Origin: Balanoglossus misakiensis
Taxonomy: Eukaryota; Animalia; Hemichordata
Length of the DNA: 64,000 bases
Assembly (NCBI GenBank): GCA_040954595.2
Contig: CM082592.2
Location: 2,607,462-2,671,461, forward strand
Direction of reading: 5' to 3'
Every line of letters starts with the position of its first letter. Position 1 is the first letter of the stretch. The position numbers and the translations under genes are program-made. The notes beneath the pieces were generated by a model that was given only the letters and a program-made list of their open reading frames with translations, was not told where the DNA came from and ran no database searches. This document shows, one piece after another, positions 21,201-59,379 of this stretch.

Positions 21201-24200
21201 TATATATTTCTTAAAGTATTATTGAAGTTTATAATTATAGTATATCGTTGCAATAAAGAAATCTATGAAAAAATTAAAATGACAAGTCAATACAATAGTT
21301 GCTAGAATCGGTAAAACAAGAAAAGTGGCGGGGGTGGGCGTGGGAGGGGGTGGCCCCCTCCCACATAAGAAAATTTTGTCAAATACGGTGCTCAAAGTTG
21401 CAATTTAATTAACTCAAAAGCAAATTAACTCAATGTTAGGGAGGACAAATTTTAATTTTGCCACTCCACTCAAAGTAAGCATCGGGGGTCGGGCGGCAAG
21501 AAGTTTTCCCTGGTACACTAGACAAACCAATGAATAAATGCAATGTGGCGAAGAATGGAGGGGGTGGGTGTGGGAGGGGGTGTCCCCCTCCCAGATAAGA
21601 AAATTTTGTAAAATATGTTTCGCAAAGTTGCATTTTAACGAACTCAAAAGCAAATTATCTCAATGTTTGGGAGGACCAATTTTTACTTTTTGCGACTCCT
21701 ATCAAAGTTAGAAGATTTGGCGTCATCTTGTCATGACATCATTTATAAAACTTCTAGTATATAGAAGATGCAGCGCGAAACTATCAGATATGCAAAATGG
21801 TTTAAACAATTATTCTCCTTTATGTATGCACTTTGTTAAATATTATCATCGGTGGGGTTGGGGTGGCAAGCATTCTGCCCTGCTACACTAGACAAACCAG
21901 CAAAAAATGAAATGTGGCGAAGAATGAAGGGGGTGGGTGTGGGAGGGGGTGTCCCCCTCCCGCATTAGAAAATTTTGTAAAATAAAGGGTGCGAAACTGC
22001 AATTTTGTGGACTCAAAAGCAAAAGTTCGGTGGCAAAAGTATGTGACCCCCCCCCCCCTGAACGTTTAAAAAAAACAGATGACCCCCCCTTTGTGGACTT
22101 CAAAATTTAAGTGACCCCCCCCCTGGATTTTGCCGGCCCCCCCCCGGCCGTAAAAACTGAACGGTCCCTTAGCTATGTATGATCTAACAATACCACTTGT
22201 CAATTTAGGGTGTCTTCCCAACCCCTGCAAGAACGGCGGGACCTGCACGTCGTCAACAACGGGAATGGTCCTCTGTGCCTGCAGTTCTAGATTTACCGGC
22301 GAGAGATGTGAAACTCGTAAGCCAAACGTCTAATTATCATATGAAAATGAAAATCCCTAGCAAACGCCGTCGGTGACAGTAGGCCTATACAGGTTACTCC
22401 TTGTCCGTTGAGCATTTGCTGCCAGAATGTTTATCTGCGACAGTACTAGTAGGATAGATACAGTTTGTAATAGCTATGAGATTAACTACTTTTTTGCTTT
22501 AAAGAGCAGCTCTTGGCTCGACGGTTATGATATCTGCTGTTCTTGGAAAAACCATTGCAACGATTGGTGGTTTTCTGATGGATTATGCAATAAGTATCTT
22601 GCGTATTTACAAAGTATCAGGACTGCTTTTACTCTCATCTGCGTAAGAACCCGAAAGAATACGGGATATTTTGAATTAGTTAGCCTATTATATAATGTTT
22701 TTGTTTCATTATATTAGACTATTTTGTTTTTATTTTTCAGGTCTGTGTATGTTCAACCCATGTCAAAATAATGGAACCTGTGTGATGTTATCCACCGGAT
22801 CATACTACTGTACGTGTCCCTCGGGATTTACTGGGACATTGTGTGAATTTTATCCAGGTAAGAAGATTCTCATCAACCGTATCCGAGAAAGAACGCTTGC
22901 CAATCTAGCCTTTGTTTAAAGGTATACAGTCACCTATATGCAAATATAGCTATAGTTACTATGGTAAATTGAGATCTAGCCAATCACAGATTTTCTGTGG
23001 GTGCCATGGCACACGCGAAAACAAGAGCGCCATCATCTGCAATTTCTGCTATATGTATGCATGGGTGCATGTACTGTATGTATGTAGCTTGGAGGTGACC
23101 GTAACGTTTAAATGGCGCCACATGTCACGTCACGTGGCACGGGGCGATGGTTCACACATTTGCCAGTGTCCAAATGGGTATTACGGGGAGATTTGCCAAC
23201 ATTTCTCTGGTAGGTGAACGCCCGCACATTGTGCAATACATGTATTTCGTCCCCTTCTCAAAGAGTTTCATCCAAACATAATGGTGAATATTCACGAATA
23301 TGACTTTTCAAATCGTTACCCGTCATATGCATCACTACAATGCAGACTGCAAATTAACCAAGAGTGTGAACTGTTACGGTTGAGTTTCAAGCGCCAAATA
23401 ACAAGTTGTCGTCTGCCTTATCTATGTATGATCTAACAATACCACTTGTCAATTTAGGGTGTCTTCCCAACCCCTGCAAGAACGGCGGGACCTGCACGTC
23501 GTCAACGACGGGAATGATCCTCTGTGCCTGCAGTTCTGGATTTACCGGCGAGAGATGTGAAACTCGTAAGCCAAACATCTAATTATCATATGAAAATGAA
23601 AATCCCTAGCAACCGCTGTCTTATTTTGATGAAATTGGTTGCTGTTTTGCCTCGGCACTGAGGAATAACGGGATACATAATTTTGAATTCTAAGAAACGG
23701 ACAGAGACCCATATGCTAGGAGAGAAACATGTACACCGTTTGAAATGAAAAGTTGGTTGTAATGCGAAGGACAAACTCAGATCCCAGTAGACATTTGCTG
23801 TCGGTTCCCTGCGAGAGACGTGCTGCCGTGCCGATGTCCACGTAGCTTAGTTTTTTTTAAATCAAAACATGCAGCCTTGATATTATTTTAGGGTGTCATC
23901 ATGACGAGTTTTTGTTTATTTCTGACGCAGAAAACTGCTACCATGGTGATGTATTATACCCACACGGCGGCACTAGGCAAGAAGATTGCAATACCTGGTA
24001 AGTCCTGCAGGTTCTGATAACCATGGAGACCGGGCTGTTTAATTCCGCCATCTTTACTACTACCGTCTTCTCAGTAAATTCTTTTACCTTTAGTTTGAAC
24101 ACCAAAACAGATGAGACTCTTTTATGAAGGATAAGCTTATCTGTAATTTTGATGCGGATCATTATTTAGCGTTTATCATATTAACTTGTGAAACTCCCTC

Positions 24201-27200
24201 TTTTAGCACATGTTCCAATGGTCACTGGGGATGTACAGATGAATGGTGCAGTAAGTATGGACCTATTTTGTCTTGTCTGCCGTTGTCTTTTCTTGTAAAA
24301 CGTTGAATGGGGGCAGATAGATTCTGATACTTACTGTGCAGTTTTGTGGTATAAACTTTCGAGGATATAACCCCCGCCGCAGGCGGGTATACACGGGATT
24401 TGGGTACAATTCGAGACATATAGCACGAGCCGTCAGGCGAGTGCTATATGGAGCGAATGTTATCAAAATAGAGTGTATACCCGACTGAGGCGGGGGTTAT
24501 TGCTATTATATTATATCAACAACTGATTTTGTTAACGAAGCAGCGTCAGAAAAAGAGGTTACGATCGTGAACCAACATGGCGACGATGAATGTAAACACG
24601 AGCGGCCCGGGATCGTGCATTAAACATGAAGCAGACGACAAAAAGTGACAAAAGTGTAAAATATTCAGAGCAGAGTAGTTCCAAAGTAAAACGTCCGTAT
24701 ATTCGTAAAAAGTGTTTTTTTATGTTATTTATTTGGTTTAATCCCACGCGACTGTGGTTTAACCGCACATTTTCTTTACTGCATGCTAGTTCAGGGCCCG
24801 TTTTACCACTGCCAGCAGTGGTAAAACAGTATTTTACCATCGCTCTCGTCCAATCAGAATCGCGGACGGTAGCATGATATAATATAATCATGATTAGACT
24901 ATTAAAGTAAGCGTCGCCGAGACAATGATTCGAACGTCTCAACGTGAAATTGGCAAATTTGACGTCTAGAAATGGAGTAGACTAAGACTATATGGAATTT
25001 TCCCAAAATGTTGGATTGGTGTTTTAAACGATGGTTCAAGTATATGTCTCTTTTCCTGATACCTCATTAGATCCAGAACTGTGTTATTATGGAAGTCAAG
25101 AATTTGGCAACGGTACGACGCGACGAGGAGATTGTAACACTTGGTAAGATACCGTTGTTGCCAAAATCATTTCTAAGCCAGCTATATTTATAACTATATA
25201 GCAACATCAGTTTCATCGACTAAATCACATGCTGATAAATTTTAAATCGGAAAACTATCATTCATAATCCAAGTCAAAGTAACCATCTGGTTTCGAGAAG
25301 CTAATGTGTTTTCGACGATCTTTTACTCTCATTTCTAGCACATGTTCCAATGGTCAGTGGTTATGTACGGAAATGGCATGTTGTAAGTATTGGACTTTTT
25401 TTTACAATCATTTACCTACATGTTCAAACGTTTCTTCCATGACGTCATATGACTGCCTAGCGGCAAATCAGAGTCTTCACATTGAACAGAATACAATGTG
25501 GAAGTTAAAGTGAAGATGACACATTATTCTTCCCATTGCAGTGACATTTTCAGTGTTTAGCGACATCATTCTCAAAAAGAAAGAAACAAAGGCAAAATGC
25601 AGTTTTATACACGTTAATTGACTCCATAATGAAACAAGAAGAATATATCAAATTCCAGATGTTTAATAATTTTTCAAAGTGAAACTGAAGAGTCACCCCC
25701 GACAAAGTTAGAAAATACAATTCGAGATTCCCAATCTGAAAAAAAAATATGAATTTCAAAGTCTAAAAAAGTAGAAGTGGCGAATAAGAGGAACAATTTA
25801 AAGATTATCTAACCTGATGATTTTCTTGGTAAATTTTATTTTCAAGTGACACCAATGTGTCCACCGTTATACTATTTTACATGCTCAACTGATAAGCAAA
25901 GTGGACTGGATACGTGTCAGTCTGATGGCGATTGCATGATTGGAAATAAGTGTTGCACGGACGTGGTGTACGGTTGTTACAAGCAGTGTGTTACACCAGT
26001 GTACGAGGGTAAGAATGGGCCGCCTTTGATACTACACTAATTTTAGGAAAACAAAACTCGAGAAAACCGGCTGTACTGTGAAACGCTCACAGTCCACGGA
26101 CGATACGCGTGGACATTAAAAACAATCTGCGACATCCACCAGTGAGTTTCGGTACATAACACGGAGATTGATACATGTATGTTACCGTTATAATACAGTG
26201 TTCAGTTTGGCATGTTCTGTCGCCATTCTGTTTCGTATTCTCGACAGCCAATGGCTTAACAGGCAACGGTTTGTTTGTCTTCTATAGGTTCGGCGTGCCC
26301 GTTACACCCCTGTCACAATGGAGGCGAATGCGTCATAGCAAGTTCGGAATCTCAAATTGCGAATTATCAGTGTCTCTGTCCTCACGGATATTATGGAAAG
26401 CATTGTGATGGAACTGGTAAGTTTTTATAGAGTTATGACAGAAACGGGAAAAGGAGAGGAAGGGGGCATATGAGGTAAGGGAGAGAATGGGAGGGGGGTT
26501 GAGGAAGTTTGAGAGAGAGGACAAAAGTAAATAAATGTTCTATTTAGAGGTGACGAAAGTATTTTAAGCCTTTAATTTCACCCTTTCTGTTGTTTTTCTG
26601 CAGATTGTGAGCCCAATCCTTGTATGAATGGCGGAACTTGTTCCTTATCTAAAGATCCTGAAGGACCTTTGGTGTACTGTATGTGTCCCCTTGATTATAG
26701 TGGCATATTTTGCCAAGACATGACCGGTAAGATGCCACTGTTATGATATCTGCTGTTCCTGTAAAAACCATTGCAACGATTGGTGGTTTTCTGATGGATT
26801 ATGCAATAAGTATATTGCGTATTTACAAAGTATCAGGACTGCTTTTACTCTCATCTGCGTAAGAACCCGAAAGAATACGGGATATTTTGAATAATTTGTA
26901 TAGTTAGCCTATAATCATGTTTTTGTTTCATTATAGAAGACTATTAATAGAACCTGTGTGATGTTATCCACCGGATCATACTACTGTACGTGTCCCTCGG
27001 GATTTACTGGGACATTTATTCTGGTAAGAATACTTTCATCAACCGTATCCGAGAAAGAAAATGGCGAGGTTTGCTAAACGCGTGCCAATCTAGCCCTCGT
27101 TTAAATGGGCCACATGCCACGTGGCACGGGGCGATGGTTCACACATTTGCCAGTGTCCAAATGGGTATTACAGGGAGATCTGCCAACTGCATTTCTCTGG

Positions 27201-27558
27201 TAGATGAACGCCCGCACATTGTGCAATACATGTATTTCGTCCCCTTCTCAAAGAGTTTCATCCAAACATAATGCAGGTGAATATTCACGAATATGACTTT
27301 TCAAATCGTTACCCGTCATATGCATCACTACAATGCAGACTGCAAATTAACCAAGAGTGTGAACTGTTACGGTTGAGTTTCAAGCGCCAAATAACAAGTT
27401 GTCGTCTGCCTTAGCTATGTATGATCTAACAATATCACTTGTCAATTTAGGGTGTCTTCCCAACCCCTGCAAGAACGGCGGGACCTGCACGTCGTCAACA
27501 ACGGGAATGGTCCTCTGTGCCTGCAGTTCTAGATTTACCGGCGAGAGATGTGAAACTC
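3249..27558 (+). CDS. Secreted modular Cys-rich protein: signal peptide + 10 six-Cys pacifastin/VWF-E-like modules + 3 WAP + 15 EGF (~1,150 aa, ~39 exons; terminal exon not identified)
   Basis: GT-AG exons with consistent phases. Signal peptide: 3249-3312 ([21 protein letters not shown]). Six-Cys module half-exon pairs: 4027-4099/4958-5007, 5364-5430/6264-6313, 6670-6736/8434-8483, 8840-8906/10614-10663, 11019-11085/12353-12396, 12862-12934/13104-13147, 16245-16311/16521-16564, 17390-17462/17652-17695, 23931-23997/24207-24250, 25071-25143/25339-25382 (e.g. [35 protein letters not shown]). WAP: 13611-13772, 18158-18319, 25847-26008. EGF: 14057-14185, 14514-14621, 15051-15167, 15777-15884, 18604-18732, 18923-19042, 19276-19395, 19756-19863, 20300-20416, 22209-22316, 22741-22857, 23458-23565, 26288-26416, 26604-26726, 27451-27558. 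All modules are phase 1-1 and the spliced frame has no stop. Confidence 0.8.
4105..4871 (+). repeat. Complex (GA)n/poly-purine tract 1, intronic
   Basis: Almost pure A/G on the + strand; lies in the phase-2 intron splitting module 1. Confidence 0.95.
5568..6177 (+). repeat. Complex (GA)n/poly-purine tract 2, intronic
   Basis: Same composition and same 3' flank (gtttcgatggatgccg) as tract 1. Confidence 0.95.
6874..8346 (+). repeat. Complex (GA)n/poly-purine tract 3, intronic
   Basis: ~1.47 kb with recurring sub-motifs (gtgaaagtgag, gcgagagggggg). Confidence 0.95.
9044..10527 (+). repeat. Complex (GA)n/poly-purine tract 4, near-copy of tract 3
   Basis: Same order of sub-motifs as tract 3, differing mainly in run lengths. 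Confidence 0.95.
11276..12328 (+). mobile_element. 5'-truncated non-LTR retrotransposon (CR1/L2-group-like LINE): C-terminal RT region plus 3' UTR
   Basis: ORF to the stop at 12144 with RT motif LFADDT and [17 protein letters not shown]. (TTGA)n tail at 12306-12328. 5-bp TSD AACTT (11271-11275 and 12329-12333). Empty sites in the paralogous blocks at ~16497 and ~24183. Confidence 0.9.
15202..15525 (+). pseudogene. Dead EGF exon interrupted by a TTAA-target MITE (other copies at ~19430-19697, ~20450-20763, ~22892-23209; MITE-free decayed copy ~27077-27199)
   Basis: Removing the MITE and a 5-nt duplication gives the consensus [40 protein letters not shown] followed by a GT donor (six-Cys EGF pattern). 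Confidence 0.8.
15230..15423 (+). mobile_element. ~190 bp MITE with TTAA target duplication (Kolobok/piggyBac-type target); copies at 19458-19629, 20479-20661, 22920-23107, ~38968-39148 (reverse), ~45001-45187
   Basis: TIR AGGTATACAGTCACCT / AGGTGACCGTAACGT. TTAA on both sides. Empty site cgtttaaatgg at ~27098-27108. Dispersed copies in the TRPM introns. Confidence 0.85.
16681..17205. mobile_element. Hairpin-bearing non-autonomous element (copies ~24367-24885; internally deleted ~12513-12675; fragment ~1225-1310)
   Basis: ~140 bp imperfect palindrome agcaataacccccgcc...gggtatacac...gtgtatacccg...gcgggggttattgct at 16683-16824, with a dispersed fragment outside the tandem array. The right boundary is approximate and the family is unassigned. 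Confidence 0.55.
20978..22168. mobile_element. Non-autonomous PIF/Harbinger-type DNA transposon (1.19 kb)
   Basis: TIR GGGACCGTTCAGTTTTTACGGC / GCCGTAAAAACTGAACGGTCCC. 3-bp TTA TSD (20975-20977, 22169-22171). Empty site tctgccttagctatg in paralogous units. Three internal sub-repeats. Confidence 0.9.
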
Positions 27559-28213
27559 GTAAGCCAAACGTCTAATTATCATATGAAAATGAAAATCCCT
27601 AGCAAACGCCGTCGGTGACAGTAGGCCTATACAGGTTACTCCTTGTCCGTTGAGCATTTTACTGCCAGAATGTTTATCTGCGACAGTACTAGTAGGATAG
27701 ATACAATTTGCAATAGAAATGAGATAACTAGCTCTTGGCTCGAAATACACTCTGGAGAATAAATAATAATTGGGCTTGTGTGTTATATGCTTGTGTCCTT
27801 TTTATTTTTTCATAAGGATAAAAAAATGGTAAATTGAAAAATGTTCAGGGCCTGTCAAAAAACTTCTGGGAAGTTCTGTTTGGGCCACGCCCTTACACGT
27901 GACGTCACTAGAGGAACCCATTTACGTACGTTTGCAACAGACTTAGCATTGTACATTGCAGTGGTTGAATTGCAATTATACATGTCTGTGATCTAAACAG
28001 CTTTGCTGGGTCAGCCTGGGTACAACTCTGGATTCCCCGTCCCCTTCAAAATAAACGTACATATGTATACCTTATCATCTAGGGGAGATGCGATTATGAA
28101 AAAAAAAACTACCCGGCCCGGCTACAGCCTTGCATTGCAAGCAGTACACCACAGGCAATGGCAGCGGATGTGTATAGGCGCCCTACACATACAATGATTG
28201 CTGCCTCGATTAA

Positions 28214-28525
28214 AAGCTCGTAGCTCGTCTCACACGCATGTTCCAACTGTAGCCGCTGGTTACAGACGTTTAGTGAACAGTCAATCCCATAAGGCAGGGC
28301 TCTGTCCTAACGACAGAGAAGATGGCGGCGACCATAATCTGTGTCGGAGATCGGGAAAAGACACTAGCTTGGGTGAAAAGGAGGGACAAAACCAGAATCT
28401 ACTTATACGGTGCACATTAAATATATGGAAGGAAACGTCGCATTTAGGCAGTCCACTATTTGAATGCATCGAACGGAAAATTTGCTGGGAAGTTACGCGC
28501 ATGCGCGTGAGACGAGCTACCCGCT
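28214..28525. mobile_element. MITE with TTAA target (copies ~36837-37148 reverse; ~48494-48737 reverse, partial)
   Basis: TIR AGCTCGTAGCTCGTCTCACACGCATG / CATGCGCGTGAGACGAGCTACCCGCT flanked by TTAA; internal sequence shared with the two dispersed copies. Confidence 0.8.
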
Positions 28526-29772: not shown

Positions 29773-32700
29773 TTATTGATTGCTGCTTGGTCGAGTATTT
29801 CCGTGCTGTGGACATGTCAGCCGATTTCTCTTGTAGTTTTGAATACACTTCGTACACACAACTGTACATCCACATTCAAGAGGAATGTCAGCTGAAAAGA
29901 AGTGAGCAGACAATATTGAAATCATCTCAAGGTTGATATTAGCCTGTAGACAGGCAATGGATGAGAGACATTTTAAAAATAGCTTACCAGTAGTATGGGC
30001 CTTTAAGTTTAAACGATATAAATACAAAATGTGTTTGATTCTACTGAAAGTATGACTAAAAAGTCGTTGTGGTACTTACAGACAATGTTGGTCAAACACA
30101 TGCGACACTTCCTGCAATCTGTAGTGTTGAAAAGTAACACTCCGTGGGATTTTGATAGATCCTGCAACATGATGTGTTTTATTTTAAATGATTTCAGAAG
30201 TATTTTTATTGATCTAGTGCAATTATTGTAATAGCATCCGTTTCTTTAAAGTCGACGAAAGTTGAGTTTGAAGCTATGAAAACGTGCATTTTATAACTAA
30301 ATGTATATGTGAGTCGTGAAATGTCCAAAGTTTTCATGGCGTGATACCAGCCCCGAACCAATCGACTTGCCTATTCCAACTAGATATGCGCAGTTCTGTT
30401 GTATACAGGATATTGTTGAAGAATTATGCTAGATCATAGTACATTACCTCCAACTTTCTACATACTATGTCCACATGTACTCTTTTCTTTCGCTTGGTTG
30501 TCAAACAAGACACTATAATCTGAGCAAATTCGTGTTTCAGTTTATCTGGCCAAACCTTTAAAAAGGAATACAAACGTGGATTTATGTGTATACTAAACAT
30601 GTATCAGAAGCATGATTTGTAAGTGATGTTATTTGATACCTCAAACGGACAATGGCTTCATGATCACTCACCGTGTTTTCAGCCAACTGTGCCAGTTCTT
30701 CCGTGTCTTCAAAGAAGCCATCTTCTTCCCATTGATTATGGATAAAGTCATCATCTGCAGTTGAACTTGCGAGCACACCGGTAAACAATTCCAATAACAC
30801 TATAAATAAAACAATAAATATCACTATTTATGTATGTATGTATGTATGTATGTATGTATGTATGTATGTATGTATGTATGTATGTATGTATGTATGTATG
30901 TATGTATGTATGTATGTATGTATGTATGTACGGTATGTATGTATGTACATTGTATAGTCGTTGCAAATAGTCAAACATCTTATTCTTACTTCTAATTTCT
31001 TTTCCCGGCGTTTGTTATTGTGTTAGTTGCAGGATTTTCGGGAACATGTTAACATCGAGTAATATGTCAGGTTTATGAACATTGTAAATGGAATATTTCT
31101 GTGCATATACATGTACATGTATAGGGTCGAGTTTACCTCACCTTTGCCATAGCTGAACACGTCACCAGCTGCGTCATAGTATCCTGGTGGTTTACTGGCA
31201 AGTGCTGGATCGCTGTATCCCAATGTACCACATACATACGCGTTGGCACAGACACCTTCAAGAAGAACATTGGGGTCGTGCAATTATCAGTTTATTATTG
31301 TCGCCAATAGAAAACGGTGTGTAATAACACGTAATACATTTTAAAATGAATGACAAATATTTAGTTTAAAAAAGTACTGGAGACAGAAAAAATCAATGAA
31401 ATACTCATTCGGTATTGAAGGACAGAGGTCATGTACCTGTTCTAGACTTATAGAACTTCTCTTTCGGTATTTCTCGCGTCAATCCCGTGTCCCCCAAATA
31501 TGGCCACCAAGTTTCGTCGAGTAGAATGTTCGCTGACTTGATATCACGGTGAAAAATCCTTGAGCGTCTAAAAATACAGACCAATGGCTTGAAATGGTAA
31601 CCGTTCTTTAATGTATCTTAATGTCAAATGCAAAACTGTTCCATCTGACTTTAAAGGATTAAATCTGGCTTGTTGATGGCAAGTAAGTTAAGTATTCTAT
31701 CATGATATACGACTGGCGAGAGAGACAAATTTGCTCTATGGAGACTTTGAAATTGTCATGCAGCGTGCAGAGCATTGCTTTTTTGTGTTGAAAGGGGTGT
31801 AATGCATAAATCACCTCAACTCCGTGGGTGTGTGTAGACATGATATTGCGCGTCCAATTCCAACTCCTATGACAAGCCTTTTCTGCCATGTAAGTTGATG
31901 ATTTCTTGCTTTCAGTTGATATGCTAGATCTCTGTTGGCCATGTATGGATAAACGATGCATCTGTCCAACAGAAAAGAACGCTTGGTTTCACTGATGTAC
32001 AGCTAGTCCTCGAAGGGTGTACATGTACTTGTTTCTCTAATGCCTTCTCACACTCACATTCATTGTGAACCTCCTTAGGTTTTAGATCTAAATCACAGCT
32101 TAGTTAGAAATGCATTGTGCTAAATGCAGAATGTTGAACACTCGAATGCTATAAGAAAATTGAACTACAATCTGAGTAAAATGTTCTGCAGGACTTTTAT
32201 GGAGAAACTGTTTACATGGGATTTGAACTAATGCTGGTCACTTACCCATCTTCTTCACACACAGCAAAGACAGGAAGGATGTTCGGATGCTTTACTGCAG
32301 CGACAGTCTTTTCCTGTAATTCCAGATGCGAAGAAAATAAGAGAGGATGATTATAAATGCAACTACTGCAATCAGTCATTTTATCAGCGAAATCATGTAT
32401 CTATTTTCGCTTCTGTACATTAAAAAATGGGCCAAGCTTTTACCAGTCTGTTTTAAGGTACATGTAGTACGCGCCTCCAAAATCAAAGTCTTAAACTGTT
32501 ACTCCTACAGTGATTGAGACAAATTTTGATTATTCTCAAATTGACAAAAAGTTTGGTCACGGTGCAAAATTTGGATCTTTTTCACTTAGTGGACACAACT
32601 ATACCCCATGGGCAATACCATTATTTTTTAGAGGGCGAGGGGTGGCAATGAGGGTGAGTTTGTATGGGTCACCGGTTAGGGTTAGGAGGGTTAGGGTTAG

Positions 32701-35640
32701 GGTTAAACTCACCCTCACATTTCCACCACTCACACCCTCATTACCACCCCTAACCCACCCTCATTGCCACCCCTCGCCCCCTAAAAGTAATGGTATTGCC
32801 CAGGGGGTATAGTCGTGTCCACTCAGTGAACCAGATCCCAACATCTTTAATGAGAGAGCAATTTGAATTTGAATTCAAAATGACCGCCAATTTCTGTGTT
32901 TACTCTATTTTATGCGAACATGCCAGCGAACACTGTCTTTACTTCTTTTATTTCATAGAGACTCCTCAAACACTTTAATATAAAACAAAGAATTGGCAGG
33001 TTTGGAGAACTGTAGTTTTTCCCAAAACTCTTTTCCCCGAGTGTGAGGAGCTTTCAACAGCTTTGGTATTCACATATTGTGAGTAAATCAACAAACGAAC
33101 AAACTTGCACATATTTTCTTAACCATAGTGACATACACTGGTCTTACCCTATTGTATTCCCTGTTACCTTGGTCTCCAGATTTGTCCAATACTTTTATGG
33201 CTACCTCCTGACCCTTGTAGGGACCACTGCACGGAAATGTACCTGCAGACAGACAAAATGACTTTTTTTCATTACATTTTTGAATTCATTCCTCCGTGAC
33301 AACTTATTACCAAAGAAAGATGTACTAAATCGCCAGCACTGAAGTGGATGCTGTTTCAAGACTTACCTTTGTAGACTGGTCCAAATGCACCCTCGTTCGA
33401 GATAAGTGTTTTTCCCTCCGACATGATTCCTGCAATTTGATCACGTGATAACGAATATACGCCAGTGTCCGGATCACTTGAGAGGGCCGCCTCAGCACTG
33501 GTGATTTTGTCAAGTCCCCCTTCCCGGATTTCTATTTCAGAGCTCTCTCGGCATCCTTCAGCATCAGTGCCACAGAACGTATACTCTTTCTTCTCTTTGA
33601 CTGGTCTTGCACTGTGACTTTGTAAATCGCAATCACTTCTCGGAAAGGTGAATTCTTCAGGCGAATCTGTATCTGCCATCACAGATGAGCGTGCAGAACT
33701 TAGTGTTGCCGTATCAGTGGGATATCAAACATGTTAAAGCCTTCCATCAAGTGGGTGGAATCAAACCAGAAGTATGCAGCATTTTAAAGCATTTGGGACG
33801 TGCCATACGCTCAATTAAATTATCCAAAACCACAAAAGATTTTATTTAGACGAGTACAAACTTGTTATTTCTGAAATAGGTTACCTGGGTCCTTGATAGT
33901 GTCATCATCACCTTTGTCATCATCATCACTGTCAGTGTCACTTTCATTGTCTTCAGAGACATCATTACTCGCTTCACCTGCACCCACTATTTTGCCGTTA
34001 TCTCCAATGATAACGTTTCCACCATGAATATGGTAAATGTTGCCTCCAGCATCATATTCTGACATTTTATCTAAGATCAATTCAAATTAATTACTAATGG
34101 AGGTGTGTCATCTGTAGGCATATTTGATGTTAATGTATGTATGTATGTATGTATGTATGTATGTATAAAGAAGGGTAGGAGAAACGGAAGGCGGTAAAAT
34201 CTCTACAGCGCTGTTTCGTGAGTTGTATGTATGTATGTATGTTGGTTGGGTATGTGTGTGTCATTCGTAGGAACCTGCATACCAAATTTCAAAGTAATTT
34301 GTCAAGCAGTTTCTGAGGTGATTTTCTACCAAAAAACGCCCAAACTGCTCGAAATCTACAAATATGCAAATTTCAACACATTATAAATAAATGTAACCTA
34401 TGTCTCCACAAGGGACCTGCATACCAAACTGGATGTAATCAGACAAGCGTTTTCAGAGAAAAAGATTTTTTTTTTCTGCCAGAACTGGCAAAAATTGCCA
34501 CTAAATACTACAATGTAATATGAAAATTTTAACATAATTTGAACAAAGTTTATTTAGGTTACCCCAAGGAACCTGCATACCAACTTTTAAAGGAATCGGA
34601 CCAGTGGTTTCAGTGAAGAAGATTTTTAACAAGTGTTGACAGACGGCAGACGACGGACATCCAACCTATCTGATAAGCTCCACTTCGCTGATAGTGTAGC
34701 TAAAAATTGTTTCCCAGTTCAAAACAAGCCAGAGATTTCATATTTATTATATCCAGACCTTTTATTTCTTCTACAGCTTCAGCAATAAGTTCAGTAAAAA
34801 CTTCTGCTAGTGGTGAGAATTCTTTCCTGAAAATATCCGCAGAGTGGCACATTTTGTGAAAATCCAATTGCTCACCTAGTTAACAGTCACTATCCCAGCA
34901 CAAATAATGTATAGAAACAACCGACACAAGTTACTTCACATTTAATATCCCATGAAAATTAAGTTTTAGTTTACGTGTAAATCTGATTTTGATGTTTTGT
35001 GGTCATTTGCTGCGCTAGGCTTACGTACTGCATACCACAAAAATGAAAAATAACTTACTTGACAGCCTTTTTGAATGAAGTCCATATAGATCCGTCATCA
35101 TCATCATCATCATCATCGCCGTCGTCGTCGTCATCATCATCGTCAGCAGATTTGTCATCCGTAACGTCACTACTTACAATTACCCCCGGTAGTTCTAAAC
35201 ACCGTTTCACCGGCCATATAAAACGTGACGTCTATTAGCATGTTGCCTTAAGGTCAAAAGTTTTGTTAACCAGCCATGTAAAGTAAATCATGGGACAATT
35301 TGTAGTGTACTTCGAGACTGCACTTTGGCCTCAGAATTTCACGAATTTCAATGTATCTCCACAATGACGTAGAATCCAAACTTTTTGCGAGGTAGACTAC
35401 ACCTTTGTCCAAATCGCATTCAAAACTGTTTTGTGAGCCCCAAACAGCCTGATGTTTTGCATGTGTCCTTTGCTGTCAGAGGCCACCGTGGTAGTAAAAC
35501 ATATATGGCAAGGCAATGCCACACAGGATATGGGCATTTATCACCCTGCTAACATTAAAAATCAAACTATTGATAAATTAAACCCATGTATAAATTATTG
35601 TAAAAGGTATCTCACCAAGTAATTCTTCTGACGCCATCAT
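29773..35640 (-). CDS. IRAK/Pelle-family protein kinase with N-terminal acidic tracts and RHIM-like motif and C-terminal RING-like finger (~570 aa, 14 coding exons)
   Basis: Exons, 5'->3' on the - strand: 35640-35616, 35194-35059, 34826-34759, 34070-33885, 33672-33367, 33242-33148, 32313-32246, 31961-31815, 31567-31437, 31255-31142, 30799-30672, 30555-30448, 30161-30080, 29891-29773 (TAA). Phases join without stops. Motifs: NEGAFGPVYKG, VAIK, KHPNIL, CIVYPYM (Tyr gatekeeper), LTWQKRL, HRDIKSANILLDE, DTG, GTLGYSDP, DVFSYGKVLLELFTG. Confidence 0.88.
30828..30946. repeat. (TATG)n microsatellite in a kinase intron
   Basis: Long near-perfect tatg run; shorter runs at ~34134-34165 and ~49865-50000 (mixed ACAT/ACAG/ACAA). 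Confidence 0.95.
32588..32823. mobile_element. Palindromic MITE carrying internal (TTAGGG)n
   Basis: ~70 bp imperfect TIR (agtggacacaactataccccatgggcaataccatta... / ...taatggtattgcccagggggtatagtcgtgtccact), with ggttagggttaggagggttagggttagggtta at ~32674-32705. Confidence 0.7.
33985..34041 (-). other. RHIM-like (amyloid-forming homotypic) motif coding segment within kinase exon 4
   Basis: Translates NIYHIHGGNVIIGDNGKIV, matching the RHIM pattern of a hydrophobic strand, a turn and a [IV]-x-[IV]-G-x-N core. Confidence 0.7.
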
Positions 35641-35794
35641 TGAATATATGTTGCCTGAATCTCTATGTGTTTTTTTCTTGTGTGGACGGTATGACGAAAG
35701 TTTTAATTCGTACGACGCCACAAAGAGAGAAAAAACCCAGGTCTAAAATTAGCTCACTTCCGATCCCTTGTTGAACTTTGATCTAGCTTGTCTT

Positions 35795-36280
35795 GTACGC
35801 AGTCGCGTTGGGGATGTTTACACACGGTGATATCTCCTATGACTTATAAAAGGGAGAAGTCTTGAAACCAACTATATTTTCAACACACACATTTCGAAAT
35901 TCAGATGTTTTCACTCGACACAAAGGCAACAAATTAGCATCAATACCACCCATTCCATGTCAAAATTCATACCTGCTATGCTTTTTGCCTATTATTATCA
36001 ATCTTCTGTGAGTTTTGGGGCGATTTCTGAGGCTGGGGACTACACTTTCTATGCTCGATACACTTGTGAGCTACCTTCCCGAACAAGTGGTGTTGTGATT
36101 AGCTATCTACGCATTTCCTATAAGTATATAGGCAAGCAATAATTAACAGCATGCACCACTACTTTCCATCGGACAGCTAAGGTACCTCCAAAGTGGATTT
36201 AGTTTCAAGACTTCTCCCCTTTCTAAGTCATAGGAGCAATCTTTATGTGTAACAACCCCCACGTGACCGTGTTTGTACGA
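35795..36280. mobile_element. Old MITE-like inverted-repeat element just upstream of the kinase gene
   Basis: ctcctatgacttataaaagggagaagtcttgaaac (~35834-35868) is the imperfect reverse complement of gtttcaagacttctcccctttctaagtcataggag (~36202-36236); pairing extends outward. Confidence 0.6.
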
Positions 36281-38531
36281 CGTTATCGCAGGATATTATG
36301 AAACCTCATTAAGGTTCAGTCCATTTGTAAAGTTGATTTAATGTGTATTTTACCATGCATATTTATTGCTGTTATTTCATGAATATCCTCGTGAACCAGA
36401 GCTCTCTTTTCGCTTCACGTAAATAAGCCAATACATGAAAGGTGTCGAAGAATGAAGGGGGTGTGTTTGGGTGTATGAAGGGAGTGTTGCCTACCACGTT
36501 AGAAAATTTTGTAATACATGTAATACTGTACAAGTATTAATGTTTCACAGGATTTTAATTTCACAAAATCCAAGAATTTAAGACCAAGTATAAATCTGCC
36601 TCAAATATCAAGACAGTGAAATTAAATCCCTGTGAAATTAATTCATGATTTTACAGACTAGCAAAAATATTTTACCGCCTGTTTCCTGCAAATATTTGCC
36701 TTATTCGTACCATGTGTTCATGACACTTTTTTAACATTTCACTAGTATCAACTACCTGCATGATCATTGACAACCAGTACAACTTCATCATTTCAACCAT
36801 CAATTAAAGCCCCAACAGCTGCCATTTTTGCATTAAGCCCGTAGCGCAACTCACGTGCATGCGCGTAACTTCCCAGCAAATGTTCAGCAAATTTTCCGTT
36901 CGATGCATTCAAATAGTGGACTGCCTTCGCTTCTTTCCATATTTCATGAGCACCGTATCAGTAGATTCTGCTTTTGTCCCTCCTTTTCAACCAAGCTAGT
37001 GTCTTTTCCCGATCTCCGACACAGATTATGGTCGCCGCCATCTTCTCTGTTGTTAGGACAGAGCACTGCCTTATGGGATTGACTGTTCACTAAACACCTG
37101 TAACCAGCGGCTACAGCTGGAACATGCGTGTGAGACGAGCTACGCGCTTTAATATTTTCATGAATTTAATTTCAAACTTAGATTAGGACTATTTAAAGGG
37201 GTTAACTGAGTGAAATAAATGCATTCTTATAGCACGTGTAATCATAAAGGCTAGCCGTGGCAACCATTTGAAACATGTAGTCAATGATCAAAAATGTTTA
37301 ATAGAGATATAAGAAAAGTTAAAAGCCTTTATTAAAAAAAATAAAACATATAAAAAGACCTATGCAACATGTGGTCTACTCTACAGCTAAGCTAAAAGTT
37401 TTCAAGTTGCCTCATTACCACTGCTATTCCATGCCAGAAATATATGGGAACAAACATACATATTTTTAGAACCGCTTGCGTTCTGCATAGGTCACAACAC
37501 AAAACTTTGAAGCCCGTCAGCTAGCCCTGCATAGCGTATGTAAAGCTAATGAGACAGGGGAAATATTAGTAAGGTTGACAACTGACTTGCTCGCTATCAA
37601 GATTTAGAAGGAATTTATTTGCTTAGTGAGGCCAGGACATTAATTGCCCCCAACCAAGCAAAATCCACGTGGGTGGAGCTCATTATCACACATAGACATT
37701 GCTACAACTATTGTTCACATCAGGGTTATAATCACCTCCCCATTAGCCCTTCTTGCCGTAACACCTGCCCCAAATTGCCGTAATGGAGCACACATTCTTT
37801 TGTTTCAAACTATGGGAACCTTTGTAGTTGCCGTAAACTAAGACAAAAAACATCAATTAACCAACAAAAGAGGTGTTGCCGTAACATCTCTGCTACAACA
37901 CTGCTACAACTAGTGCGGGAACTTTCCCGTACAGTTTAGTTGTTGTACGCTGTTGGGACTGTATTACTCCATGATCTCAATACTGAATTGAATTTTTAAA
38001 ATAATACAAACGATAATGTGCATTTAAAAAAAAACTCACATAGAATAGTCATACAACAAAATCAATGATTGTATGAAATCAAAGGATGTTCATTCTTCGA
38101 GTCATGGGTTTTGTAAATATACTGTGCTCATTATATTACACCCACAATATATCAATCATAAACACTGCATTTATAACATCTAATTGTTCATTAATAAGCT
38201 AATGTCTATAAACTCTTGGGTATTTCTACATACAGAGTAAATACTTGGGAATTATAAATTGCATCTGAATCAACCAAACTACTGGTACGATCAAACGCTA
38301 GAAAAATGATATCATTCAATTAAACTTCAGGTAAAATCAGAAAACCTTTCCTGGAACTGATTTAGATTAAAATACACTGCAGGGCACAAACTTGATCAGT
38401 AAAAATGGGCATACTCTGTCATTACAAATTATAGCAGAATATATACGTGAGAAACATGCACATATTACCTCAATTTGATTCACAATACATCTGTACTGTC
38501 TTCTACATCTTCAGTAACCGTGTTCTCAAAA

Positions 38532-41500
38532 TCACTCACTGGTTTCAAGAGTTTCTCCAATCCAATATTTGTCAATGATTCTGTGTTCAAAAGATTTCAA
38601 TTTAAATAATCCTGAAAAAAAAGAATAAAGATGATTAAAACCTTTGGATAAATGTTTTTAACAGATATAACTCATCCTTGATAGAAGCCTGGCCCATGAA
38701 TTTTTGGTTTTCCCCTCGCCCTTGCCAATAAACAAACCTTTGGTCAGGGCGTTGTCCATTATTTCTATAACAGTAAAACTTGTCTAAACGGTAAACCATG
38801 CCAAAAATGGCCAAGCATGGGACTCATGAGGACATATATCTTGTTTACACATGATGTCACTAACTGAAAGTGTTCATTACAAAATGGCTTCCACTCGGTG
38901 TCTACAGACTTCAGTGCACCAGCTCTCAAGGTAGGTCAATCAAGTTTTGTTTTTGAAACACAAACTTAAAGGTCACATCCAATTTACATATGCCCATATA
39001 TGGCTGAAATGGCGTATTTGAAGGTTCTAAAGAACATATGGTGGCGCTCTTTTTTTCGCGTGTGCCACCCACAAAAAAAACGTGATTGGCTAGATCACAA
39101 GTTTACCATGGTAACTATAGCTAATTTTCCATAGGTGACCGTATACCTTTAAACTTGCATTATAAGCCAGTTCTTACCATCATTTGCTTTGGAGTCGGTA
39201 GTAACAAGTGTGCTCAATTCATACATACAGCTATTCTGCCGTTGTTTACAGATAGACATTAGCTTGGTGACTGAGAGATAGACCCACACGAAGATGCATC
39301 CAAAGGGAAAGAAAGGCGCTTTATAGGTGTATTCCATGATCATTCCATAGCGATAAAATGACCAGATCATATCCGATCTCTCCTGGACTTCTTCGACATA
39401 CATGCTATAAAATTTAAATAAATTAGAATGTAATTAATGCAATATACGTGACTGCCTATTATACACAGAGTCTGGCGTATAATATGTCACACAATATAGT
39501 GTATGCAATGTACTGGATGTGTGGTCTCTTCAATGCATCATTAACAGTGCCCTCATTCCACTTTGCGGTAAATGTAAGGATTGAAGTTACTATTAAATGC
39601 CATCAAATCAAAGTATTCTGTTATGTATAGTTTGAACTCATCTGAGAATAGATTATTTTCCACTCTAGACTTAATAAATTACCATAGCAATGGTAATAAA
39701 ATCAAACTTTGTATGAAACTAAAATAGACGCAGCGCTTAAATAAAGCCCCTATAGCTGTTACTTTTGCCATATTTTTAATTGATGAAATACTTCAATCTT
39801 CTCCTTATCGTCAGTCGACAAATGATTCTTTTTGACTATGTGGGGACTTTAATATTCATGTGCACATATCATGATAGTTGTGTACTCATGGGCAATTATT
39901 TAAATGGGTGTGGCACCTGTTTATTATTTTACCTGTTCATTTTTACATGTACAGCGACAATCGGATGTTGGCGATACGTTTGTGTGACCCACCAATTAAC
40001 TCACTCAAATGAAACATCTAAGTTCAAAAGTAATATCATGAAAATAATTTTAAAATTAGCACCTATTGAGGCTTTAACAAAAAATGTAACTTTTGTGTCA
40101 TGATGGGCCATCCCATGTACTGTAAAACACTTTATTTTCACGAGCAATAAATTTTCGCAAAATACGCGAGAGCCAAAATAGCGTGAAAATAAAAAGTCGC
40201 GTAATTTTTTTTTAAGATAACGATGCAGTGAATGAAATAAGAGAACGCGAAAAATTAATACTCGCGAAACAGTGGCCTCTCTCGATATCGCGAAAATTTT
40301 AACTCACGAAAATAAAGTGCTTTACAGTATTTGTCCTTTGCCATGAGAATGTCCTAGCCAATCTCACAGGGTTTCGTGCAGTTTGGAAAATGCTCTACCG
40401 GTATTAATAACATACCTGAACACAGCAATCAGCAGATTAAGTAGCAGTACATTTGCAATGAGCACATAAGTGGCTATCAACAATGGCATCCAAACTTGCA
40501 CAACACACCCTGGATCACTTGGTTCAACACAAGTTATATTTTCACCTGAAACCCAAAAAAAATAAAAAAATTCTTTAAATATTGTGTGGGCTCTGGAAGA
40601 TTTTTAGAGGGGAAAAAATCCTGCAGACATCAATAAAAAAAATAGCCACAGATGGCTTGAAAAAACAGGTGGCTATATGCTAATTATGTAAAAGGCTGAT
40701 GAGGCACCATACCTGATACATGTTACCTGATACACGTGTCCGGCAGTTCTAAAGTAAAAACATACTCGGAAAAACTTTTACTGGATGCCGAAATATTTTT
40801 GGCCCGTCACCTGGAAATGACAACGCCATGGGTCGCATGGCCAGATCACGTGATTGATGGCAAAGAATAGGAAATTTATGTCCAAATTGAGTTTACAGAT
40901 GTGAAAAGGCTTGGTTGTTGACAGTACTTGAGTATGATAACTTTCCGTTGCATCACAATCAATGTAAATTATTACCTTTCACTTCTACGTCATCTGTGAG
41001 CAGATCACCATGCATTCGAAAGTAGAACTGGTAGAGAATACTTGCAAACACAACAGGACTTGCTGGAGTGTTGGGTTGTTCCAGAGCAATGTAAGCTGTA
41101 CCAAATGCCAAGTAGAACACCAGCAATATGACAAGAAATATCAACAACTCCTTGACCTGTGTATTAAAGAAATCAAAATGATGCCATCCAGAATTTACAT
41201 CTCGAATTTACTTACAGTAAATCTACAATGAGTCGAGAGTGTGGGATCAATTTGATACCACACTCTTCCAGAATCGAAAGCTTAAGAGACGGGCGCTGAT
41301 TGGATGACAAAATGTTCTTTAATTAATGCTTGCTAAATGTTATCCAATGGCGTGATGTGTAACACTTGGACAGAAACTATACAAAGGGCCAGACAACAAT
41401 GTTTCTAGTGTGAATAATGATATTTTGTGGGAGAAATAGAATCTCACACACCAAGGCAAGGATCTGAGATCAGATTTCTCACAAGAGTTTTTGTCCCCCA

Positions 41501-44500
41501 CGAGCCGCAATAAATGAAATTTTGGGAAATGAGAATATTTTCAGTTTTGAGTAGACCTGACATACCTTATTGCATGATCAACAAAATGACAACAAACAGT
41601 TAATTCTGATTGGGGGGAGACACACCTTGTGGCAACTGCTGTATTTGAAAACAGCAGGTGCAATCTCCTTATAGTCATGCACGGAACAAATTGTTTATAT
41701 CATTTGATAACTACGCAGAAACGGCATACTACAAAGTTAATTTTTTTCAGCCGATGATGTGTCACATAAAAATCAAAACTGCTTACCATATGCTTGATCA
41801 TGATGAGTTTTGCTCCAAGGTGGCGGAAAGCAAACATGAATGGTAACAGACTGAGATAGCACATCAGTAAGGTCAGACCGTACAAAATTCGTACCCACAC
41901 AAAGTAGCGGGCAGCCATGAGAATCCGGGTAATAAATGACACCCAAAATAAACCCAGCATTATCAGTTTGATCATATTCCATCGTTGCACAAACCAATTC
42001 TTCATCATGGAAACGAAAGACTCTATATCATAAATGTATGGGACCTGCAGACAAAAGAATTGAGATTCAGATACATGTACATGTAGTTGGTATCATGAAA
42101 GAGCAACACTATAGCGACTGCATGTTCTGTGATTCTACTGCTTGCACAATTTTCTGATGGACACGTTCATGCTTGCTGAGAACACTTGAACTATTTTAAA
42201 GGGACAAAGTCTCTCTCTCGCTGCCCTTTTCCCGTTATTATGTTTTATACTAGACACCATTTATGTTATTCTACATATAGATCTATAGTGAATCAACGTT
42301 CGACCACACACAGTACAAGTCAACTATGGAGGACGTGCATTTACTTCAGCTGCTTAAAATCTCTGGAACTCACTGCCTATAATGACATTCGACTAGCACC
42401 CAGTCTAGACTCTTTGAAGAGAAAACTGAAGACATTATTTGTTTGAAATAGCCTACGGTGAACTACTGGATTATGGTGCCATATAAATTTGTTGATTGAA
42501 ATTTTGTTGATTGAAGACTACGGCTTGATTGATATTGTTCTCACCTACCAGTCGGATTTCTTCAATAGTGAACAAGAACATCCACACAGCAACTATTATT
42601 TCAAGAACACTGGGGGCGCCATTTTCACCATATGTATGCAGATCAGTCAACACAAAGATAGTGAACATAGTCAACAGAAGAATCATTGACAGCTGGAAGA
42701 TACAAAGTGGATTTCATAATTATTACAAAACAGATGGTATGATATGCTAAGTGACGTGTTTCATAAATTGCTTTCAACATGAATTTTTAAGACAACCAAA
42801 ATGAAGATATCGACTTCCGAAAATAACCATCATGAATAAAATTGAACATTATGCCAAGATATTAATTGAAGCATGAAAATTCAGGGCAAAGGTAGCTGAC
42901 AAGTAACTTACCAAGCTGAAGTAAAACTGCGTTCGTGGAGAGAATAAAAAGCTTGTGAACTCTTTCATCCATTCATCAGATCCACTTTCATATGTGCCGT
43001 CTTTGCCGCACCACAGTGTGGTCAGTTTTGTCTGACAACACGGCTGGTGCATGAAATCCTCATTGTGGTAGTACCACGCAATCTTCAAACAATTGATCTC
43101 TCCAAACGGCTGCTGTGAACTAGATTCGTGTGATAGCTCCAGAGGAGAGACCAACAGTTCTTGCGACTTTTTCCTGTCTTCGTTGTAACATTTCTTGATT
43201 GCATCACAGGCAAGTTTGGAGAATTCACTGGTGAAAAAAATGACGGAGAAACTCATTGCTGTGATATGATTGACAGTTTTCTGATTGGTGATTCATGTCA
43301 TCGACTGACTCTACCATTTTCACTTTGACCATAGCTAATACATTTAGTTTGACAATTCTGTCAGGGTGGTCATTCAGCATACTGTAAAACACTTTATTTT
43401 CGTTAGCAATAAATTTTCGCGAAATACGCGAGAGCCAAAATAGCGTGAAAATGAAAAGTCGCATAAATTTTTTTTGATAACGATGCGGTGAATGAAATAA
43501 TAAGAGAACGCGAAAATTAATACGCGAAACAGTGGCCTATCTCGATATCGCGAAAATTTCAACTCGCGAAAATAAAGTGTTTTACAGTATATCATCTAGT
43601 TTTACTTCATAGTATATGTACCGGTACTTCCAATTTGTAGTTTCAGTTTCACAACAGCTTACAACATGTCGAATTATATAAACTAAATATAAGAGAAAGT
43701 TATGTAACATTCATAAAAAACCTGCATGCCCTTGCTATGTCTTTATACTTGCAAGAATGTAGTCTTATATTTTTTTTTATGGCTCTTGCGTATTTCGTGT
43801 AAATTTATTGCTCGCGAAAATAACCTGTTTTACAGTATTATAACACACCTTTAATCCGTAATCTGTGTTGTAATTCGCCAATGTCAAGTCACAAGAGGTG
43901 TATCAATTTGGCGCTGTTGCCTGGCCAAGTTGGGAAGCACCATCTATGCCAAACACTCAAGAAAACTAAGACGGCGACGTCGTCTGCGCCCAAGCCAATT
44001 TGATGACAGCAGAGAAATTTCCTGATTTGTGCTACTATCGGATAAGGTGTGTTATAAAAGAAATATTGAATGGCCATTATAATTCGCCCCTAAACAGTCT
44101 GTTGCACTCAGCCTCTGGAAACAGACTGTTTTGAGGCAACCCACAGTCCCTCGGAATTCAAAAACAAACGACTATGCTGTTTAACCCTACCTATGACATG
44201 GCCGGCCAATATGTGTATAGTAATGCTCATCTGATACAATTATATGTCATTTTCTTACAGCAAACTGCAAGTTCAAATCTACTAAAAATATTGCATTCCA
44301 CCCCTCCATGTTTAAATTCCAACTTTGACAGAACACAAACCATGCACGTCCAAAATAAACGGTATATCTGCTTGCTTGCTTGCTACTCAAGTTAATCAAA
44401 TGGTTTGACAGGTCAACCACCATCATCAGACAAATGCTGCAGGTGATTTTGATTCTGCATTTTCAATTTCATGAGATTTCTAAATTTACAAACTTTTGTC

Positions 44501-58668: not shown

Positions 58669-59379
58669 TAAAACACACTGGGTATGGTGACCAGGCTAAG
58701 CAAATACGGGTTTCACTCACAGAAAAGGCGAGAAGAATTAATTCAACACGTACAATCAACCTCTTTTTCTAAACGACATACATGTACATGTATATAGACT
58801 AGGGGGTAGCCCCCCCCCCCCCCCCTCAGCGCGGCAGAATTTTCACCCCATTCTTTATACATGAAATTGACAAGAAATAACGTTTTTGGTGGGAAAATAA
58901 ATTCTGTTGAAAATAAAGTATTAAGCAGTATTTAATTGTGTACAATGAATTGCACTCACTAACCATGCATGCTAAGAAAATAAGACCCCTTCTTCTGAAA
59001 AGACGGTTTTCTCTGATATCTTCCTCAAGTTTAGGTCTTTGTCAATTGGCGAACTTTAACACACTACTCCTACACAATTCTTGTCAACTTCATCGATTTT
59101 TCTGCCCACTCAGCATTGTTGTTCAGATAACCACTCTGACCTTAGATCAGGCCACTTTTTACAGATAACACACCCACTAACCTGTCCCACCAGGTACCAG
59201 ACTATTTAAGTGCTCCCTAGTTTGGCCATATTTCATATTATTTACAAGTCACATGCCCTGTTTAACCAATCAGTTGCAAGAAGCCACCCATGACAGTTTT
59301 GCTAACACCATGATAAAGAGCTCTATCACTAACTGTTCCTCATTTGGTCCAGATCTGTGAGCAAGCTAACACATACAGA

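Follow-up and report, generated by a model that had tools for sequence, protein, structure and literature searches.

Amyloid signalling by kinases through the RHIM is known from RIPK1 and RIPK3. The core of the motif has been defined as (V/I)-Q-(V/I/L/C)-G (PMC9444067, PMC13506858), followed in the RHIM pattern by Asn at +6 and then an apolar residue at +8 (PMC4262963); the cryptic RHIMs of insects are given as VxxG in PMC13506858, and the core of HET-s repeat 2 is VLIG (PMC4262963 supplement). A large and mixed set of RHIM proteins has been reported from amphioxus (Kajava et al. 2014, PMC4262963), and PMC12119088 reports RHIMs in RIPK1 of lancelet, Lingula and mussel. MLKL genes are present in deuterostome invertebrates, with duplicates in hemichordates, whereas RIPK3 has been found only in vertebrates and the RIPK1 of Ambulacraria is reported without a RHIM (PMC11507063). 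Here we describe a gene in a 64,000-nucleotide stretch of the acorn worm Balanoglossus misakiensis (contig CM082592.2; hereafter the window), which has a eukaryotic composition of ~39% GC. The gene would encode a degenerate RHIM-like motif followed by a kinase of the RLK/Pelle/IRAK superfamily and a RING-like finger, and apparently represents a death-domain-less member of an undescribed invertebrate RHIM-kinase-RING family. No description of such a family was found in the literature searched (most subscription papers lay outside the search), and six accession or locus names gave no literature match. All positions are those of the window, and the gene, read from the minus strand, is a predicted model.

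The RHIM-like motif and its family

With exon 8 of the window gene as query a single protein was returned, P0001 of Ptychodera flava, and the wider searches that followed gave a family of 14 proteins from Ptychodera, Glandiceps, Branchiostoma species and Lingula, extra isoforms not being counted. Not all models are complete: that of P0008 breaks off within the kinase, that of P0004 has no finger, and in P0011 and P0153 some of the kinase is missing. The P. flava orthologue is represented by two isoforms (NCBI models), X1 or P0002 (XP_070576017) and X2 or P0001, and shares 211 of 279 kinase residues with the window protein. In P0002, two Death stretches (E 4.7e-17) and a VQMG motif precede a weak UBA, the kinase and a weak RING; P0001 omits the two death domains, its sequence picking up again shortly ahead of the VQMG motif. 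A tree of 55 kinases, built without the partial P0008, P0011 and P0153, places the window protein next to P0001 as its sister (100/100), both belonging to an acorn-worm clade of four members (100/98), in keeping with an acorn-worm source; a branch with 100/99 support separates the 12 family rows from all others. The front ends of the family are Death (5 of 14), DED (one), CARD (one) or none, and several members carry caspase-like or trypsin-like domains at their C-termini. A kinase, a finger and a C-terminal caspase-like domain are combined in P0007, P0122, P0123, P0125 and P0153 of Branchiostoma, P0191 of Ptychodera and P0197 of Glandiceps; P0197 has two DEDs, and P0199 of Lingula a CARD and a trypsin-like domain. 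There are three paralogous genes in P. flava (P0001/P0002, P0003 and P0008), two of them with consecutive accession numbers and all with a longest contig of equal length, which suggests a tandem cluster, and one copy of the kinase gene in the window.

To judge from its alignments, the island in exon 4 of the window gene is a degenerate motif descended from a RHIM-type motif; the original prediction had called it RHIM-like. Its core tetrad is VIIG; P0002 has VQMG at the same position and other relatives have VQIG, a canonical VQ[IM]G core lying N-terminal to the kinase in 6 of the 14 family proteins. When P0001 and P0002 were compared with the window by tblastn, the motif was the only N-terminal match beyond chance level (9 of 18 residues identical, E 0.36-0.37), and the local alignment of aa 44-110 to the VQMG motif of the orthologue was better than all of 1000 shuffles. 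A position-specific scoring matrix (PSSM) made from seven family motifs, the P. flava orthologue being left out, gave the window motif the top rank among 51,531 six-frame windows (15.1, the next scoring 10.3), a score reached in none of 2000 shuffles of the first 225 aa. With a hidden Markov model (HMM) of eight family rows no shuffle out of 2000 scored as high, or 6 of 2000 when the orthologue was removed. Set against the alignment of RIP1 and RIP3 (PMC4262963 supplement), the window motif keeps the V, I and G of the core, the apolar residue at +8 and the upstream alternating apolar pair, with Ile substituted for Gln and Gly for Asn. Whereas its flanks have diverged, the motif pattern has been retained. 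VIIG also fits the VxxG core of cryptic RHIMs, though this pattern is loose and of little weight alone.

We lean, if only slightly, towards the view that the motif of this death-domain-less Pelle/IRAK-superfamily kinase-RING protein may still act as a homotypic amyloid-type docking tag. A number of observations weigh against it. The window core fails the pattern (V/I)-Q-(V/I/L/C)-G, and the +6 Asn is absent, Gly standing in its place, with Ile at +8; core Gln and +6 Asn are the amide residues expected to form ladders. Scoring with Pfam RHIM (PF12721), which the original prediction had proposed as a check, gave no match to the window motif at E up to 10. The HMM, which was too sharp (its training rows scored 28-41 bits), gave the window motif 4.2 bits, outside the top six open reading frames (ORFs), and the eight motif rows had been selected by eye. 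A PSSM of amphioxus motifs only did not single out the window motif (256 of 2000 shuffles were as high), and a PDB search with the family-motif profile returned 17 matches at E up to 10, none of them a RHIM amyloid structure. No partner protein carrying the motif was found within the window. At the level of the gene model, the exon-4 acceptor (58th percentile of background sites) and the exon-3 donor (77th percentile) are weak. Conservation among the relatives is partial: under a looser pattern, motif-like segments occur in 9 of the 14 proteins, often as two or three copies in amphioxus, and the remaining five have no motif, which implies that it is dispensable in some members. Lastly, single changes in the RIPK3 core (TQIG, VQSG) can abolish NF-kB activation, though all RIPK3 core variants tested still gave cell death, Gln being altered in none of those listed (PMC12119088). 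As a query, the motif exon itself found no homologue among 82 candidates (weak evidence) and no match among PDB sequences, and in the ESM Atlas it met only low-scoring clusters (0.80 and 0.76).

Part of this evidence would also fit a decaying relic in a stripped-down duplicate, which would have lost the function of the RHIM along with its death domains and the two UBA-like domains, the kinase-E3 being otherwise recruited or constitutively active. This is the main alternative, and we regard it as somewhat unlikely. Besides the failure of Pfam RHIM and the five relatives without a motif, it draws on the loss of the core Gln and the +6 Asn, which are present together with the apolar +8 residue in all three acorn-worm relatives with the motif (P0002, P0004 and P0008), and on the erosion of the remaining N-terminus, ~135 aa separating motif and kinase as against ~350 in P0002. 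However, no N-terminal segment other than the motif can still be aligned to the orthologue, and the motif has preserved its apolar pattern and its glycine, which points to selection; amphioxus relatives show the same deviations, with non-Gln cores and no +6 Asn (VVIG, VVFG, ITAG).

Another reading takes the family motif for a short interaction motif of beta-arch or beta-helix-like type, which would resemble a RHIM without forming amyloid. Pfam RHIM matches two of nine motif rows (Glandiceps P0004 and P. flava P0008, best E 0.012) and no whole family protein, although no other Pfam family matched more rows, and the PDB matches of the family-motif profile include hexapeptide beta-helix acyltransferases. 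Nevertheless, core, +6 Asn, apolar residue at +8 and upstream apolar pair all recur in the relatives as in the alignment of RIP1 and RIP3, and their motifs lie in disordered linkers, in up to three copies and beside death domains, in agreement with the Branchiostoma RHIM proteins (PMC4262963), which makes this explanation very improbable. In the orthologue model the predicted local distance difference test (pLDDT) score is <50 over aa 1-83, the motif region being predicted disordered, as is usual for RHIMs, and the window motif has acidic flanks.

The original prediction saw in such acidic flanks a possible brake on polymerisation. As a general rule this idea is unsupported, because the orthologue motif has no Asp runs beside it. 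The predicted Asp run is indeed there (35144-35094, with GAT and GAC codons mixed), and the description of the N-terminal ~220 aa as acidic and of low complexity holds for aa 1-45 and 106-140 (46-49% Asp and Glu) but not for aa 46-78 and 141-220 (21-22%).

The kinase and its RING-like finger

Judging by the PDB matches of the orthologue, the kinase is of the RLK/Pelle/IRAK superfamily and not a RIPK, and the position of the motif N-terminal to such a kinase was seen correctly from the start, as were the signatures CIVYPYM, LTWxxR and HRDIKSAN. Searched against PDB sequences, the orthologue found plant RLCK/RLK kinases best (E 1e-29) and IRAK4 at E 7e-20; the best 60 of 80 matches were all plant RLK/RLCK or IRAK, with no RIPK among the matches listed. 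Foldseek with a model of P0001 (kinase pLDDT mostly >80), built from a plant-kinase-rich alignment, gave plant RLK/RLCK and IRAK groups and no RIPK among the matches listed. A single-sequence fold of P0001 had a mean pLDDT of 38 and was usable at the UBA-like part only. A PDB search with the plant-rich alignment A3 was not used to place the family, being biased by its many plant rows.

The window kinase keeps the Lys of VAIK, the Glu of helix C, HRD and the Asp of the DFG position, and deviates in having DTG for DFG, two of three G-loop glycines, and YSDP in place of the YMAPE of IRAK4-like kinases. Over 51 aligned kinases Val399, Ala416, Lys418, Glu434, Asp513, Lys515, Asn518, Asp531 and Gly533 (orthologue numbering) are invariant, and kinase activity is therefore likely, as far as catalytic residues can tell. 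HCD or HLD takes the place of HRD in P0122, P0123, P0126, P0153, P0191 and P0197, which are thus non-RD kinases, and P0125 also has HCD. Non-RD kinases are linked to pattern-recognition signalling.

The original prediction treated the protein as an IRAK/Pelle-type kinase, and one might suppose that a true orthologue of these kinases exchanged its death domain for a RHIM-like motif in a single isolated event. The Tyr gatekeeper in CIVYPYM, named as an IRAK-type feature in PMC3498205, would fit, as would the presence of IRAK4 and IRAK1 among the best sequence and fold matches. The gatekeeper, though, marks the superfamily and not IRAKs alone, because Tyr460 of P0001 is nearly invariant in the plant-kinase-rich alignment. 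The tree, which held one IRAK4/Tube-like sequence (P0044) and no RIPK, sets the family apart from P0044 as a clade on a long stem; grouping the two was not rejected, with p-AU (approximately unbiased test) 0.29 for this one IRAK4/Tube-like row, and neither was grouping the family with environmental kinase-RING proteins (p-AU 0.53). The kinase phylogeny that had been called for yields a separate, well-supported clade, and nesting among IRAKs is neither shown nor rejected by it. Against a true orthologue also speak YxDP instead of YMAPE, the RING-like finger, the separate IRAK4 orthologue that acorn worms and amphioxus have (PMC3498205) and, above all, the coexistence of death domain and motif in 5 of the 14 family proteins, from acorn worms and amphioxus alike; the architecture of P0002 largely refutes it, and we consider it hardly credible. 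In the tree, the acorn-worm, amphioxus and Lingula proteins make up a separate RLK/Pelle/IRAK clade; the window protein has an IRAK-like active site, but we do not file it as an IRAK.

The C-terminal RING-like finger, missing from the earlier description, consists of seven Cys and a final His, with the same pattern of Cys in 10 of the 11 relatives compared. Matches to Pfam zf-C3HC4_3 are at E 0.0046 (last exon of the window gene) and E 0.0011, both below the curated cut-off. For the C-terminal part of the orthologue the best ESM Atlas cluster combined a kinase with zf-C3HC4_3 and was mainly haptophyte (0.99), kinase-U-box clusters following close behind. Four environmental proteins, P0015, P0032, P0050 and P0099, have a Pelle-type kinase and a standard C3HC4 RING.

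Death domains, gene model and neighbouring features

As originally predicted, no death domain was detected in the window. With P0002 as query, tblastn found the kinase and finger exons and the motif, and for aa 15-232 only two chance-level matches (E 5.8 and 7.7) distant from the gene; a profile of four family death domains run over 3267 ORFs reached E 3.8 at best; Pfam Death matched none of 63 minus-strand frames selected from the stretch 34080-39433, most of them at least 25 aa long; and a suspected death-domain relic in intron 1 (35269-35475) received no support. The idea that the motif replaced the death domain is not supported, since P0002 possesses two death domains and a RHIM together. 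In acorn worms and amphioxus alike, every family protein with a death domain (five in all) has the motif as well, which makes loss the simpler history; four relatives (P0008, P0011, P0125 and P0153) have the motif without a death domain. The window gene thus likely lost the two death domains kept by its closest relative and inherited the motif.

One could object that death domains are present after all, in exons outside the window or too diverged to be recognised, or that exon 4 is not in the mRNA. The model is a prediction and the exon-4 acceptor is weak, and in controls with held-out pieces of 30-45 aa the profile missed those of the first P. flava and amphioxus domains. Yet it recovered the pieces of the second domain, and the tblastn search that finds the kinase, RING and motif of the orthologue gives nothing above chance for aa 15-232. 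Room is scarce as well: intron 1 measures 421 bp, the longest stop-free frame upstream has 73 codons, and a TRPM-like gene on the same strand ends ~2.9 kb upstream of the kinase gene, which bounds the space for upstream exons. We therefore think this objection improbable, and loss of the death domains remains our preferred history.

The predicted gene (35640-29773) has 14 exons, with GT-AG borders at all 13 introns, and an open frame of 570 aa (Table 1). The exon set of the original prediction was incomplete: exons 2 and 4 are out of frame together, their direct splicing was rejected because it meets a stop codon, and the overlooked exon 3 (68 bp) is needed between them. Exons 2 and 3 form a 204-nt cassette, and the skipping form, exon 1 to exon 4, is in frame and would give 502 aa. 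Splice sites were scored by a leave-one-out position weight matrix from the introns of the kinase gene itself and expressed as percentile of background sites; they span the 58th to the 99.9th percentile, the exon-4 acceptor being the weakest. In the protein, an acidic segment (aa 1-45) is followed by a likely amphipathic one (46-78), the motif (87-105), a second acidic segment (106-140), the kinase (~227-505) and the RING-like finger (520-560). Exon 3 encodes the best N-terminal PSSM match to helix 1 of the UBA-like domain of the family (equalled by 16 of 2000 shuffles, in a post hoc comparison), which fits an eroded N-terminus; aligned directly to P0002, the helix before the motif gave no significant result (88 of 1000 shuffles as good).

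Table 1. Exons and motif of the predicted kinase gene, followed by other features of the window
Feature	Position	Strand	Description
Exon 1	35616..35640	-	predicted first coding exon with start codon; phase-1 donor; in-frame junction to exon 4 also possible
Exon 2	35059..35194	-	acidic, with Asp run; donor at 95th percentile of GT sites
Exon 3	34759..34826	-	short amphipathic segment, similar to helix 1 in the first UBA-like domain of the family; restores frame; donor at 77th percentile
Exon 4	33885..34070	-	RHIM-like motif and acidic tail; acceptor at 58th percentile
Degenerate RHIM-like motif	33985..34041	-	aa 87-105; core VIIG at 34014-34003; aligns to VQMG/VQIG cores of relatives
Exon 5	33367..33672	-	linker and kinase G-loop
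Exon 6	33148..33242	-	VAIK lysine, start of helix C
Exon 7	32246..32313	-	kinase N-lobe
Exon 8	31815..31961	-	Tyr gatekeeper (CIVYPYM), LTWxxR; 83% identity to P. flava P0001
Exon 9	31437..31567	-	catalytic loop HRDIKSAN, DTG at DFG position; Pfam Pkinase E 3.6e-6
Exon 10	31142..31255	-	P+1 loop (GTLGYSDP)
Exon 11	30672..30799	-	kinase C-lobe
Exon 12	30448..30555	-	end of kinase
Exon 13	30080..30161	-	RING-like finger, first half
Exon 14	29773..29891	-	RING-like finger, second half (seven Cys, last ligand His), stop codon; Pfam zf-C3HC4_3 E 0.0046
TRPM-like channel gene	38480..57000	-	multi-exon, directly upstream of kinase gene; Pfam TRPM2 and Ion_trans, both below cut-off
TRIM2/3/71-like protein	59317..61590	+	single 757-codon frame; RING, two B-boxes, Filamin, NHL repeats
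Repetitive gene	4000..27500	+	EGF-like exons and repeated Cys-rich exons; several blocks near-identical tandem copies
GA-rich simple repeats	4000..10600		long, within the repetitive EGF-like gene
Non-LTR reverse transcriptase fragment	11203..12144	+	weak RVT_1 match
Dispersed SINE-like repeat	28200..28520, 36830..37165, ~48500..48740		~300 bp

Possible working and comparison with known systems

If the motif still acts as a docking tag, its working may be pictured after the RIPK3 mechanism, on which the proposal is modelled (PMC13506858). Nucleation of a cross-beta stack would fall to a sensor or adaptor with a RHIM, or to a paralogue with death domains, and the motif would join the kinase to that stack via a disordered acidic tether of ~130 residues. 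Crowding could then lead to trans-autophosphorylation of the RD kinase, with its catalytic Lys, Glu and both Asp, the RING-like finger might add ubiquitin, and the output would presumably be innate-immune, either NF-kB or cell death. Going further, one could imagine in acorn worms and amphioxus a second necrosome-like system built on a Pelle-type kinase, in which members with death domain and RHIM would be RIPK1-like nucleators and RHIM-only members RIPK3-like amplifiers, with amyloid stacking, an E3 finger of their own and, in amphioxus, a caspase-like protease. The RHIM-only forms would arise by exon skipping in P. flava and by gene-level loss in the window gene, and such proteins may even be activators of invertebrate MLKL where RIPK3 is absent. 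This extension is speculative, and we hold it to be unlikely as a whole. In any case, the family offers candidate activators of invertebrate MLKL, and the natural VIIG variant bears on whether the core glutamine is needed. The window gene by itself is less remarkable than first thought, because it shares the absence of a death domain with other members of a shuffling family and because RHIMs at death-fold positions have already been reported in amphioxus (PMC4262963).

Those Branchiostoma RHIM proteins resemble the present family in having a RHIM at the usual position of a death fold and in the tandem RHIMs seen in invertebrates. However, text and supplement of that study name a RHIM-NACHT protein and no RHIM-Pelle kinase-RING family, although a member may be shown in its Figure 1 (Kajava et al. 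2014, PMC4262963). In RLK/Pelle proteins of haptophyte, rotifer and plant clusters that join a kinase to a RING or a U-box, the Pelle-type kinase is likewise followed by an E3-type finger, whereas the four checked had neither RHIM nor death domain and showed standard C3HC4 ligands instead of the seven Cys and final His of the window finger. The cryptic RHIMs of insect PGRP-LC/LE and Imd and HET-s repeat 2 are functional amyloid motifs with non-Gln cores (VxxG and VLIG), but they have no attached kinase, and the comparison with the window protein concerns the core pattern. With IRAK1-4, Pelle and Tube the family has in common the kinase superfamily, the Tyr gatekeeper, the HRDIKxxN loop and, in 5 of 14 relatives, an N-terminal death domain. 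It differs from them in its RHIM-like motif, its UBA-like and RING-like domains, the caspase-like or trypsin-like C-termini of amphioxus, some acorn-worm and Lingula members, DTG, DAG or DPG for DFG, YxDP for YMAPE and its separate clade, and the window gene differs further in having no death domain. The RIPK1/RIPK3 necrosome, finally, offers a parallel in layout, a kinase to which a disordered linker with a RHIM-type motif is attached: relatives that combine motif and death domains recall RIPK1, and the death-domain-less forms RIPK3. Unlike in RIPK1 and RIPK3, where the motif is C-terminal to a RIPK-type kinase, that of the window protein lies N-terminal to an RLK/Pelle/IRAK-type kinase with a built-in RING-like finger, and its core is VIIG and not (V/I)Q(V/I)G. 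If the docking role is true, a RHIM would have come to serve a different kinase lineage from the opposite side of the catalytic domain, and the window protein would be a convergent amyloid-activated kinase.

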